A DNA stretch of 64,000 nucleotides from a virus. Its lineage: Duplodnaviria > Caudoviricetes. A program made the translations under genes and the position numbers. The DNA is taken from positions 64,001 through 128,000 of the IMG/VR virus record IMGVR_UViG_3300031994_000025. One strand, given 5' to 3'. Each line of letters starts with the position of its first letter. Position 1 is the stretch's first letter. Positions 25,794-51,061 of the stretch are shown one piece after another. Under the pieces are notes generated by a model that saw nothing but the letters and a program-made list of their open reading frames with translations, was not told the DNA's origin and did no database searches.

Positions 25794-26306
25794 CTACTCC
25801 ACCAAAAAAATACAAATTAAGCTCCCGAATAAGCTCAGCATACACATCACCTCAGCCACGAATACCCCCTTATGCTCCACAGTCTTGGCCATGCCCCCTT
25901 CCGGCTGTACGTACACGCTGCCCATGATGAAGAGAAACGCCGCCCATGCGAAGAGCCAGTCGGGGCAGAGCATCGCCACGCATACCTGACTCAGCACACC
26001 CGTAGCAATCCCGAGCCACTTGTGCCACATTCTTGTGTCAACATTTACCAAAGGCGTCAGCGCACTGCCAAACAAGCATGCCTCTGTCAGCCAGCCTACC
26101 CATCCGCATCTCTCAGTCAGAGGTGCAAAGAGTAACGCGCCAACAACGCACAGCCATGCGCTCCATATCCACTGCTTCCTATCGGGAAGCCAGTACACTA
26201 TATCGCTGATGCTCTCAGGCAACTCACGTCTTGTCAGCGTCATCAAGCCGATGAATAATACGGCAACAAGGATGAACAATCCTATCAGAAAGACACCCAT
26301 ATTCAC
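25794..26306 (-). CDS. multi-pass membrane protein (moron-like)
   Basis: About 5-6 hydrophobic segments; has its own host-type promoter. Confidence 0.75.
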   Translation of the reverse strand: MNMGVFLIGLFILVAVLFIGLMTLTRRELPESISDIVYWLPDRKQWIWSAWLCVVGALLFAPLTERCGWVGWLTEACLFGSALTPLVNVDTRMWHKWLGIATGVLSQVCVAMLCPDWLFAWAAFLFIMGSVYVQPEGGMAKTVEHKGVFVAEVMCMLSLFGSLICIFLVE

Positions 26307-26348
26307 ATTCGATTTATCAATGTTATCCTAAACAATCTTTTTACGCTA

Positions 26349-26380
26349 CAAAGATAAGCATTTATTTTGCTTTTACCAAA
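26349..26380 (-). promoter_or_regulatory. Bacteroidota primary-sigma promoter
   Basis: On -: TTTG (26380-26377), 20 nt, TATCTTTG (26356-26349). Confidence 0.75.
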
Positions 26381-26509
26381 ATTTTGTGCATAAATTTCAT
26401 AAATATGCAAACAAGTTCTTGGTTGTCAAAAATTCAAGGCACAAAAATTGCACTATACAGGTATGTGTCAGCTCATTTTCCGATTATATCACCTAAAAAA
26501 ATCACAACT

Positions 26510-27688
26510 ATGCATAAGAAAATAAGATACAGACTTGTGTTCAATTATGGTGGCAGGCTCAACAAGGACGGGCGTGCGCCAGTTGCCGTGGAGGCACGTC
26601 AAGGCAATAAAAAGATTCACCTTTCGTCGGATGTGGTACTTTTCCCGCACCAGTGGGACAAAGGGAAAGTCGTCGCGCACGACAATGCCGACAAGCTGAC
26701 GGTCTGGCTTGTCAGATGGATGCACCAGATTGAGGACATCGAACTCGACTCACTTCTCAGTGGACGGCCCATGACACTGACCAATCTGAAAAATGCCGTA
26801 AGGTTAGGTACCCATTCATCCGCCACCATCGGGGAGTTTGTCAGCGCCGTCATTGACAACAGCATACGCTCCAATCATACCAAGGCGGCTTATCACACCC
26901 TTGCGCGTGAAGTCGATAAGCATGACAAGGCAGTCAAAATGAATGACATCAATCATGACTGGATAGAACGGTGGCGAGCCTCGATGCACTCCCAGGGTCT
27001 CAGCGACAACACCATTAAGGGACGGCTGAAGCAGCTGCACTGCCTAACGCAGGAGGCCATCAAGCGAGACATTCTGACAAGCGACCCGTTCAAGTGGATC
27101 ACAATCGGAAACATGACGCCCAGACACGAATATCTCACACAGACTGAAATCAGGAAGTTCGAGACGGCTCGGTTAACGGGAAAGGAAGCAAAGGTGCGTG
27201 ACCTGTTCATGTTGTCTGTATATACAGGCCTACGATGGGGCGACCTTATCACGCTGGACGAAGCCGACATTAGCGGCGGCATCTTGAAGAAACAGATGTG
27301 CAAGACTAAGCGTGACGTTATGATTCCTATCAAAACACTTTTCTGGGGAAAAGGTCAAAGAATAATTGACCGCTATCAACCTGTATCAAAACTATGCAAA
27401 TGCGTGAAGTGCAACTCTTCAGCCAACCGTATTATTCAGGACATCGCCCGACGTATAGGCATCAAGAAAAGCGTGCATTTCCATCTGGCGAGAAAAACTT
27501 GCTCGACAATGCTCAGTTCCCTCGGTCTCCCGACAGGAGATATTGCCACCATCCTTGGGCACGCAAAGACAGAAACAACCCAGAAGTATTACATCTTTGG
27601 CAAGGAAGAGTCAATGATTAAGTCTTCAGCGAAATTGTTCCGTCAACCAAACAAGAATCCAGAACATATTAGTGAAGATGATCATTGA
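26510..27688 (+). CDS. tyrosine recombinase (probable shufflon invertase)
   Basis: YTGLRWGD, HFHLARKT, ILGH and TTQKYY catalytic motifs; arm-binding and SAM-like N-terminal domains; abuts the cassette array. Confidence 0.9.
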   Translation: MHKKIRYRLVFNYGGRLNKDGRAPVAVEARQGNKKIHLSSDVVLFPHQWDKGKVVAHDNADKLTVWLVRWMHQIEDIELDSLLSGRPMTLTNLKNAVRLGTHSSATIGEFVSAVIDNSIRSNHTKAAYHTLAREVDKHDKAVKMNDINHDWIERWRASMHSQGLSDNTIKGRLKQLHCLTQEAIKRDILTSDPFKWITIGNMTPRHEYLTQTEIRKFETARLTGKEAKVRDLFMLSVYTGLRWGDLITLDEADISGGILKKQMCKTKRDVMIPIKTLFWGKGQRIIDRYQPVSKLCKCVKCNSSANRIIQDIARRIGIKKSVHFHLARKTCSTMLSSLGLPTGDIATILGHAKTETTQKYYIFGKEESMIKSSAKLFRQPNKNPEHISEDDH

Positions 27689-27690
27689 TT

Positions 27691-27924
27691 CTGGGCGCAG
27701 ATGCAAATCTCAAATGCAAATATGTAGATAGTTTGAACGTGACAGAATCGGGCGCATACGCTATTGCCTGGAACCAAACAGAAGGTCTTTTTAGCGCTTC
27801 TGCATATTTCCTTGTATTTCAATATAACGGTTATGGAGCGCAACTTGCCATAGGGGCTAATGGCGAATTTTTTATTCGAAGAACAGACGGTGACTGGTAT
27901 AAAGTACAAACATCTAAAGTATAA
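27691..27924 (+). other. silent variable C-terminal cassette 1 of the shufflon
   Basis: Begins in frame at CTGGGCGCAG (LGA...), right after the recombinase stop; followed by a hairpin at 27933-27964. Confidence 0.75.
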
Positions 27925-27932
27925 ATACAATA

Positions 27933-27964
27933 TCGTGGGTGCAGGTATAAGTCTGCACCCACGA
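27933..27964. terminator. hairpin after cassette 1
   Basis: TCGTGGGTGCAG / CTGCACCCACGA 12-bp stem. Confidence 0.6.
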
Positions 27965-28030
27965 GTTCCATGCTGATGAGAATCCTGTTTTGTTGTGATT
28001 TGCTAATAAACAAGCATCTTTGCGATAGAA

Positions 28031-28303
28031 CTGGGCGCAGGTAAAAGCATTCCATTAAAATTAGTACCCTCTGGGACAAACTTCGATAACGTGATTGAAG
28101 GCGCATATCAAGTAGGTGCTTCCGATAATGTCAGCGGCCTTCCTATCAGTAATGCAGCATGTCTCGTATTCTGCCCTGTTTACGGGAATGGCTTTTGGAG
28201 GTTTCAGGTGTGTATATGCATGGCAAATAATCAAATCTATTTTCGCGGAGGCTATTCATCGTCATATAATGCATGGCAAAAACTGACAAGTACAGCAGTG
28301 TAA
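28031..28303 (+). other. silent variable C-terminal cassette 2 of the shufflon
   Basis: Frame is open from CTGGGCGCAG (LGAGKSIP...) to TAA at 28303; in-frame stop at 28007 with no start codon between it and the site. Confidence 0.75.
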
Positions 28304-28332
28304 AGAGGTGAGATTTTGTTCTCACCCCTTTA
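28301..28332. terminator. bidirectional hairpin between convergent cassettes
   Basis: TAAAGAGGTGAGA / TCTCACCCCTTTA. Confidence 0.55.
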
Positions 28333-28407
28333 TAATGCTATCCATAAAGACCAACTTGTATTCTTTTTTATGCAATTATTGTTCCTTCTTCAACCCGCTT
28401 AGGAATA

Positions 28408-28836
28408 CTAAACAGTAGATGAACTTAATTCTTGCCATCCGTCATTTCGCCATGAGCCGGAAGAGTAATATGCATAACAAAAAAAGATCTTGCTACCGCA
28501 AAAAATTAATATATGTTTATAGTTATCTGAGCCGTACAACTTCATCACGATGATTCGGCAAGCGTGTGTTGTGGGCATTGTAGAGGGCTTGTTGGCAAGT
28601 GAGGCAGTAACCGTACCAGATGTTGACTGATAACATCCATGAGAGAGTGATAATACATTAGCCCCAGAAGATAATATCGCACCTTCTGGAATGCTCCCTA
28701 CGCCCAGAACTGATTGAAGATTGGCAATGGAGATGATACCGTTGGTGTTGCCATTCTTGGCATACACGTTTGTTGCTGTTGTCAAAGTGTTTCCGAATAC
28801 TATTGACAGTGCTGCTGTTAAAGTTGATACATTCAT
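28408..28836 (-). CDS. expressed shufflon gene: ~43-aa constant N-terminus plus variable knob-like C-terminus (putative receptor-binding tip)
   Basis: Contains TTCTGGGCGTAG at SV|LGV (core 28707-28701), inverted relative to the cassette sites; all three variants end W-x-K/E-(V/L)-x-(T/S)-x(1-2)-V. Confidence 0.75.
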   Translation of the reverse strand: MNVSTLTAALSIVFGNTLTTATNVYAKNGNTNGIISIANLQSVLGVGSIPEGAILSSGANVLSLSHGCYQSTSGTVTASLANKPSTMPTTHACRIIVMKLYGSDNYKHILIFCGSKIFFCYAYYSSGSWRNDGWQELSSSTV

Positions 28837-28871: not shown

Positions 28872-29150
28872 TTAGAAAATAGCGGTGGCGAGGATGGTTC
28901 CTATGACCACGCCGAGAAGCCCCCAGTCCCTGCTGAAGGGAAGCGGCATTGAGCAGATGCCAAAGAGTGCGTTGACCGTCAGGAGTGACAGTGCGCCTAC
29001 ACTCTGCGCCATGAAGATGGTTGATACCCTCGATGCCCCGCATGCCGCGCATAGCGCAGCCGCGAGCATCGTCATGATGAACGTGATGGCAAAGAGCGTT
29101 ATCGCTCCTCTGTTCGCCAGTAACAGTTGCTTGATTGATTCTTTTGTCAT
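28872..29150 (-). CDS. small three-TM membrane protein
   Basis: Hydrophobic 92-aa ORF in the late operon. Confidence 0.6.
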   Translation of the reverse strand: MTKESIKQLLLANRGAITLFAITFIMTMLAAALCAACGASRVSTIFMAQSVGALSLLTVNALFGICSMPLPFSRDWGLLGVVIGTILATAIF

Positions 29151-50403: not shown

Positions 50404-51061
50404 ACATCATACGCTTCTTGTCCTTTTTCTCTTCCTCCGGCTTTGCAGGTTCTGTCTTGTCGGCAGCGGTTTCCGTCGCAGTGGCATTCGCTATATCCTT
50501 CTCGTCGGGTTCGACTTCCTCCGCAGTCTTTGCGTCGCCGTCCTTTCCCATCACCGAGAAGCGCTTCCAGAGCGCGTCTATCTCATCCTGCACGGCGGTG
50601 GCGGTGGCAGTGAAGTGACGGCCGTAGCGCAGGTTTACGGGGCCTGTGACGGCGAAGTCTGGCAGCAGCAGGGCTGTGTCAGGCTGGGCGTAGTCGACGA
50701 GCGTGAGACGGTCCTTGAAAGGATTCTCCGCAAACCACTGCGAGGGCATGGGCGACTGCTCCGGCGAGAGGTCGGCCACGATGGTCATGTGGGCGACGTA
50801 GTTCAGGTAGCCATTGCCGTCCATGCGGGCACGCTGTTTCTTCATCCACTTTCCGATGATCTCCGCTGCCTGGTCGGGTATCGACGGGGCGGCTATCAGC
50901 ACTTCCGTCTCACAGTAGCGCGTCAATATTGCTGGCAGAAGTTCGGTCAGGCTCAGGTCGCCGTAGCCCTCAAAGTCTGTCTTGCCGTTAGTTCCGATAG
51001 CATCCCGCATTTCTCTTACATGCTTTTGTGCGCAACAAGGTTCTATTAAACGCATAATCAA
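50393..51061 (-). CDS. hypothetical protein
   Basis: 222-aa ORF downstream of the tail tube-like gene. Confidence 0.7.
   Translation of the reverse strand: MIMRLIEPCCAQKHVREMRDAIGTNGKTDFEGYGDLSLTELLPAILTRYCETEVLIAAPSIPDQAAEIIGKWMKKQRARMDGNGYLNYVAHMTIVADLSPEQSPMPSQWFAENPFKDRLTLVDYAQPDTALLLPDFAVTGPVNLRYGRHFTATATAVQDEIDALWKRFSVMGKDGDAKTAEEVEPDEKDIANATATETAADKTEPAKPEEEKKDKKRMMFRR

Follow-up and report, generated by a model that had tools for sequence, protein, structure and literature searches.

Positions 26510-28836 of a 64,000-nucleotide stretch of phage DNA (hereafter the window; bases 64001-128000 of the IMG/VR virus record IMGVR_UViG_3300031994_000025, which is 140,421 bp long and complete according to CheckV) probably form a three-site DNA-inversion switch, or shufflon, with three alternative knob domains. 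We put the probability of this reading at about 0.8. The locus consists of a tyrosine recombinase gene, two silent cassettes and the gene of a protein of 142 amino acids (aa), whose C-terminal part would be exchanged. A preliminary description, made from the nucleotide sequence, had proposed a switch between three alternative adhesin tips, and this proposal is supported by the recombination sites, by the knob family and by the fusions present in relatives.

The 142-aa protein would be composed of a constant N-terminal anchor of 43 aa, a short linker helix (..ANLQSV-LG..) and a knob of approximately 95 aa. The recombinase (26510-27688, plus strand) would pair site 3, inside the expressed gene, with one of the two inverted sites (1 or 2) and flip the intervening DNA. 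With sites 3 and 2, inversion would turn over 28038-28700 and join the constant part to cassette B, and inversion between sites 3 and 1 would turn over 27698-28700 and join it to cassette A. The left arms of the sites would stay and the cassettes move, each with its own stop codon; cassette A would carry its own hairpin, and B and C would share the hairpin between them. A phage population could in this way present one small tail protein with any of three host-binding knobs. Crossover presumably takes place in or next to the 7-bp core, with a presumed bias to inversion over deletion, and the knobs would be expected to differ in receptor specificity.

Sites, recombinase and knob domain

The motif CTGGGCG(C/T)AG is found at 27691 (plus), 28031 (plus) and 28698-28707 (minus), all three copies within 1.02 kb, so that two plus sites and one minus site stand opposed in one locus. 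All copies are read in the Leu-Gly frame, followed by open frames of 77, 90 and 99 codons, and both positions and frames agree with the preliminary description. The expected number of motifs per window is 0.33, and none of 100 shuffles reached four copies. By itself, the 7-mer CTGGGCG shows no enrichment in the window (16 seen, 12.5 expected), so that the weight of the case falls on the extended match together with clustering, reading frame and downstream context. A fourth exact copy, CTGGGCGTAG at 50684-50693 (plus), was rejected as a chance match since it lies in GC-rich coding DNA and the conserved left arm is absent. Among 59 compared sites, conservation extends over the left arm (consensus gcATcAgTT) and the core and does not reach the right side. 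Arm and core of site 3 are identical to those of the expressed genes in nine other contigs.

The remainder of the locus follows the arrangement of a shufflon, with one constant 5' gene part and alternative 3' parts that lack a start codon and are read in the same frame from the site. An intact gene entered by the minus copy after about 43 codons, start-less frames headed by the plus copies and ending like the expressed gene, and hairpins after the two silent cassettes had all been described before; each was verified, as a 142-codon gene at 28408-28836 (minus), as frames of 77 and 90 codons without ATG, and as hairpins at 27933-27964 and 28307-28326. The latter hairpin is likely to be a two-way terminator shared by B and C, and the same tail-to-tail layout of cassettes with hairpins is present in the related locus L003/L006 (see below). 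The constant part had also been called very short, which is correct (43 codons), and unusual for this, which it is not, because constant parts of 43-105 aa are a family trait in ten loci. The lower GC content reported for the region was confirmed: the cassettes have 41% GC and the recombinase gene has 49%, compared with approximately 56% for the flanks.

The recombinase matches the Pfam families Phage_integrase (8e-17), Phage_int_SAM_5 (3.5e-11) and Arm-DNA-bind_5 (8.6e-5), with a score for PF00589 of 62 bits against a cut-off of 27.1, and the residues R, K, HxxR, H and Y are aligned and intact. Its stop codon (27686-27688) lies 2 nucleotides from site 1, as stated previously. It is the only recombinase of the locus, which is thus of the tyrosine and not the serine type. 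The nearest relatives in GenBank phages (at most 32% identity) carry integrase annotations and belong to phages of Bacteroides, Phocaeicola and Porphyromonas; they point to a member of the Bacteroidota as the probable host. An arm-binding architecture considered unusual in the preliminary description proved ordinary, as annotated Bacteroides phage integrases align over most of the length of the recombinase. The enzyme presumably catalyses the inversion, and the phage's only 'integrase' is reassigned here as a probable invertase.

Cassette B is similar to the expressed C-terminus (BLASTP, E 3e-7). Cassette A is not similar to B or C by plain BLASTP; it scores 24.7 bits (E 1.9e-9) against a hidden Markov model (HMM) of 52 family sequences built without A, and the best of 2000 shuffles of cassette A scores 9.7 against the same model. 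An hhalign comparison of A with the small alignment A2 gave a weak match (P 0.0015), and the broader HMM alone placed A in the family.

A cassette profile of 53 cassettes and relatives was compared with solved structures, and the same alignment was used for AlphaFold2. The profile matches the phi812 receptor-binding protein (E 1.7e-7), the SGNH-esterase-domain protein 9cod (E 4.8e-7), the R1/R2 pyocin fibres (E 2-3e-6) and the F2 pyocin side fibre (E 6e-5). The AlphaFold2 model of the expressed protein has a predicted local distance difference test (pLDDT) of approximately 90 over residues 50-140; the N-terminal 47 residues are poorly modelled (pLDDT 52-69), except for short helices at 3-14 and 37-43. 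A single-sequence model had a pLDDT of 43 and was unusable. When the modelled knob was searched with Foldseek, the ten best matches were all phage fibres or receptor-binding proteins. VIA-align aligned it with residues 446-535 of the R2 pyocin fibre 6cl6 (Z 10.7, root mean square deviation (rmsd) 2.4 A, 84 residues) and gave Z 9.4-10.5 for the P68, phi11, 80alpha, phi812, Pa193 and AS12 proteins; overall, twelve phage fibre or receptor-binding entries had Z 7-10.7, compared with at most 4.3 for the best unrelated chains. The second-ranked match in the ESM Atlas was a Bacteroidota 'pyocin knob domain' cluster. From the fold and profile matches it follows that the swapped unit is one complete receptor-binding knob, and the adhesin tips proposed earlier are, by the BLASTP and HMM comparisons, one knob-domain family comprising cassettes A, B and C, of which the modelled expressed knob (C) matches receptor-binding knobs at Z approximately 10. 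The R1/R2 pyocin fibres (6cl5, 6cl6, 6ct8) and the staphylococcal phage receptor-binding proteins (6iab, 5efv, 9euf) have the same fold as the swapped domain (Z 9.7-10.7, rmsd 2.1-2.7 A, 83-90 residues; profile E 1.7e-7 to 3e-3), but in those proteins the knob terminates a long trimeric fibre and is not exchanged through inversion.

The 142-aa protein and the expressed genes of the other loci were not recognised by Pfam, PHROGs or NCBIfam. The 142-aa gene is the last of a minus-strand gene block, running from about 45.2 kb down to 28.4 kb, with PHROG tail-protein families and an Ig-domain protein, and the recombinase lies beyond the cassettes; knob fold and gene position together suggest that its product is located in the tail.

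Fusions in relatives and related loci

The preliminary description had named alternative arrangements in relatives as a check, and these were found. In public protein sets one nearly identical N-terminus of 44 aa is fused to at least five different knobs, among them close copies of the window's cassette C and of silent cassette B. The only close homologue of the 142-aa protein is P0002 (77% identical), in which the knob is far better conserved than the N-terminus. P0003, found with silent cassette B, has the P0002-type N-terminus with one residue different, joined to a 90%-identical copy of B. Identical N-terminal alleles are found with both knobs in two pairs, P0003 (B) with P0004 (C) and P0006 (B) with P0005 (C). 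An exhaustive HMMER search furthermore found the same N-terminus on three further knobs (P0011, P0012 and P0013), and a window-like N-terminus is joined to other knobs in P0008 and P0009. Since the same N-terminus is present on B-type, C-type and other knobs, swapping occurs in relatives; the proteins concerned come from different assemblies. The window's constant part aligns with those of P0002-P0013 and is 46% identical to the 46-aa constant part of locus L009. Blastn and tblastn searches of GenBank phages gave no match to the locus or to the 142-aa protein, and neither did searches of viral and metagenome contigs with the 142-aa protein or of genome contigs with its relative P0006, in sets from which near-identical records may be missing. 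As a separate observation, 13 repeated stretches of P0010, a giant fn3-repeat protein (2580 aa) from a public protein set, align with residues 20-76 of the 142-aa protein (E 3e-6), and the anchor-linker region thus resembles an fn3 repeat.

Relatives of the recombinase that are 73%, 72% and 50% identical were found in three IMG/VR contigs. Directly after the 73% relative (L003/L006) there are 31 CTGGGCG sites in 8.4 kb, and the reversed 8-mer TCTGGGCG, used as a control, occurs 0 times in that contig. Each site opens a frame of 55-105 codons, the cassettes are placed tail to tail around two-way hairpins, and the array ends in an expressed gene of 191 aa whose constant part stops at ..ANLASV before Leu-Gly. 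Twelve of the 31 cassettes match a knob HMM built without any sequence of that locus at E <1e-3. The number of cassettes is far above that of any published shufflon found.

The DNA pattern for ..ANL..SV-LG on the CTGGGCG core was present in nine other IMG/VR viral contigs, in expressed genes that consist of a constant part of 43-105 aa, ending in ANLASV|LG, and a variable part of 79-117 aa. Each of these contigs has at least one further site with a cassette nearby (1-30 silent cassettes), most of them in the opposite orientation. A homologous recombinase (27-73% identity) lies beyond the cassettes, at the far end, in all eight loci with enough flanking sequence. The recombinases form two clades, approximately 29% identical to each other, a distance equal to that of either clade from an ordinary Bacteroides phage integrase. 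In all loci the cassette blocks have a higher AT content than the sequence on either side (GC 38-44% compared with 47-57%), with the exception of one L011 flank at 41%. The neighbouring genes are not common to the loci, which suggests a mobile module. An all-against-all BLASTP comparison of 59 cassettes gave 0 near-identical cassettes common to different loci, and thus no pair of contigs shows one cassette both silent and expressed.

No prophage-like match to the site pattern was found in 185,579 bacterial species genomes. Three matches in soil bacteria (Gemmatimonadota, Pseudaminobacter and Blastocatellia) were judged from the organisms alone to be chance. A candidate second shufflon elsewhere in G002 was also rejected, as its inverted CTGGGCG pair has no cassettes behind it.

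We judge it somewhat more probable than not that the locus belongs to a distinct and undescribed family of mini-adhesin shufflons in phages of gut and rumen Bacteroidota. In such a family a whole receptor-binding knob may be exchanged on a constant docking peptide of 43-105 aa, and the conserved linker of the knob, ANLASV-LG, may contain the crossover site. One and the same site may be kept by recombinases of two clades of approximately 29% identity, and the AT-rich module may move between phages, in unrelated genomic contexts. The number of cassettes may range from 3 to 31, and read-through cassettes could stack two knobs.

Further observations were made on individual related loci. In L015 (3279-3830, minus) a cassette reads through a second, internal ..ELASA-LG.. 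site and encodes 184 aa with two tandem knobs; some cassettes may add a knob instead of replacing one. In L004 (6001-9832; IMGVR_UViG_3300037454_000334) the 72%-identical recombinase adjoins a 170-aa membrane protein and a 458-aa reverse transcriptase like those of diversity-generating retroelements (DGR), and an Asn-rich C-terminal frame resembles a DGR variable region; a DGR may here substitute for the shufflon. In L003 (5494-5772, plus) and L004 (5376-5783, plus) the recombinase gene is directly preceded by the gene of a conserved small protein (92-135 aa), which could be a directionality or regulatory factor.

Table 1. Features of the putative shufflon in the window, and the 31-site relative.
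Feature	Position	Strand	Remarks
Tyrosine recombinase, 392 aa, presumed invertase	26510-27688	+	Pfam domains, catalytic residues
Site 1, left arm and 7-bp core CTGGGCG	27684-27700	+	Arm overlaps recombinase stop codon
Silent cassette A, 77 codons and stop	27691-27924	+	Reads from Leu-Gly; start codon (ATG) absent
Hairpin after cassette A, 12-bp stem	27933-27964		Terminator-like on minus-strand reading
Site 2, left arm and core	28024-28040	+	
Silent cassette B, 90 codons and stop	28031-28303	+	Reads from Leu-Gly; start codon (ATG) absent
Hairpin between tail-to-tail cassettes B and C	28307-28326		
Expressed gene, intact, 142 codons	28408-28836	-	Site 3 lies 43 codons in
Cassette C, variable knob now expressed, 99 codons and stop	28408-28707	-	AlphaFold2 model and fold matches
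Site 3, inside expressed gene	28698-28714	-	Core 28701-28707, left arm ATCAGTT 28708-28714
Constant 5' part, 43 codons	28708-28836	-	Ends ..ANLQSV before Leu-Gly
31-site shufflon, thirty silent cassettes	L006:1872-10269 (IMGVR_UViG_3300032007_000075, contig bases 56371-64768)		Same core

Alternative explanations

Several observations weigh against a working three-knob switch. The window lineage is known in the assembled orientation only, and P0001 is identical to that orientation. The left arms of sites 1 and 2 only partly match the family consensus. No homologue of cassette A was found in the protein database searched, and therefore nothing shows that A has ever been expressed. The 140-kb genome has no PF00589 match other than the recombinase, which may thus act as an integrase as well. 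Finally, the 72%-identical recombinase in L004 has no shufflon nearby, so enzymes of this clade may have, or may also have, another job.

The single known orientation and the arms that differ from ATCAGTT, together with the presence of three sites here compared with 31 in a relative, would fit a family of true shufflons in which the switch of this particular phage no longer turns, with A and B as silent leftovers with drifted arms and the phage always in the C form. We regard such a frozen relic as unlikely, although it is the strongest of the alternatives. The silent frames are still open over the full 77 and 90 codons and still score as knobs, and the recombinase is intact. Silent-site arms that are similarly divergent, including AA before the core, are present in other members (L014), and in the sister lineage an expressed gene carries a B-type cassette.

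If the recombinase were only a lysogeny integrase, the repeats would be coincidental and the plus-strand frames would be independent small genes or old duplicates. It is indeed the only tyrosine recombinase of the genome, its nearest GenBank phage relatives are annotated as integrases, and its homologue in L004 lacks a shufflon. However, the order of recombinase, cassettes and expressed gene is kept in 8/8 loci across the two recombinase clades, the sites lie in one reading frame at a domain boundary and the cassettes have no ATG at their start. Together with the alternative fusions in relatives and the 0 prophage-like matches to the family pattern among the bacterial species genomes, this makes an integrase without any part in switching very improbable. 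Just as improbable is an origin of the fusions in infrequent events of homologous or illegitimate recombination during evolution, with no ongoing enzyme-driven switch, a view which draws on the fusions having been seen in proteins of different assemblies and not in mixed reads of one sample, but which is opposed by the identity between sites of only 10-16 bp, by identical N-terminal alleles with different knobs in two separate allele backgrounds and by a recombinase that is always alongside.

Known systems and neighbouring genes

The three-site switch proposed here was compared with several known inversion systems. In the shufflon of plasmid R64 the tyrosine recombinase Rci acts on sfx sites in pilV and brings about multiple inversions. 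Like those of the window family, the R64 sites are built asymmetrically from a single conserved arm and a 7-bp centre, and the R64 cassettes are placed tail to tail in invertible segments as in L006; unlike the phage protein of the window, the product is a plasmid pilus adhesin with a long constant part. To our knowledge, Rci is without the N-terminal domains of the Bacteroidota type. The invertases Gin (Mu), Cin (P1) and Min (p15B), summarised in PMC6109161, switch phage host range by inverting the 3' ends of fibre genes. These are serine invertases that depend on an enhancer and Fis, whereas the window encodes a tyrosine recombinase.

The Rin shufflon of Bifidobacterium and Eggerthella prophages uses a tyrosine recombinase on a receptor-binding gene, with cassettes that are mutually only 6-30% identical (PMC6109161; PMC8778435). 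As in the window, the system is phage-encoded, with the recombinase and the constant 5' part of the receptor-binding gene at opposite ends and, in between, start-less C-terminal cassettes behind a short asymmetric repeat. The Rin crossover repeat (rix) is the 11-bp TTCCCTAACCC (PMC6109161), in contrast to the core CTGGGCG and arm ATCAGTT of the window. The hosts of Rin are Actinomycetota and not, as probable here, Bacteroidota, and its constant part belongs to a full receptor-binding gene, compared with 43 aa of a 142-aa protein.

A BV01-like Phocaeicola phage has a recombinase next to a 1.7-kb block of three cassettes which overlaps the distal end of a tail-fibre gene, and the activity of this shufflon has been demonstrated by junction reads (PMC13596623, 2026 preprint). 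Both systems belong to Bacteroidota phages (with the host of the window phage being probable) and have a recombinase beside three cassettes. The 10-bp motif of the BV01-like system, TGGGAGAACT (PMC13596623), differs from the window core, and there the end of a full-length carbohydrate-binding fibre is altered, giving six isoforms, whereas the switch in the window would place a complete knob on a mini-protein in three forms.

Phage tyrosine-recombinase shufflons acting on receptor-binding proteins have therefore already been published (Rin and BV01-like), and the present locus is a minimal three-cassette member. It would operate as the published ones do but differs from them in three ways: in its site, in the mini-protein target, and in the complete knob swapped at the linker. 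What chiefly hampers the prediction and use of gut and rumen phages is host recognition; the 140-kb phage is itself from gut or rumen, and its locus is a compact arrangement by which several host-binding tips can be carried by one phage. Because the swap point lies at a clean domain boundary, the family is a natural and testable model for the docking of small knob adhesins on a tail and for the exchange of receptor specificity. What is gained for the present genome by itself is limited: three reading frames that could not otherwise be annotated receive a well-supported annotation.

Around the locus, 26307-26509 is non-coding, and the small protein found upstream of the recombinase in L003 and L004 is absent there. 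The shufflon gene is separated from that of the Ig-domain tail protein by a gene for a hydrophobic protein of 92 aa (28872-29150, minus), which matches no family. Finally, the window (25794-26306, minus) and L004 (7202-7714, minus) encode homologous multi-pass membrane proteins of 170 aa (32% identity), and the two genes flank the recombinase gene on opposite sides.

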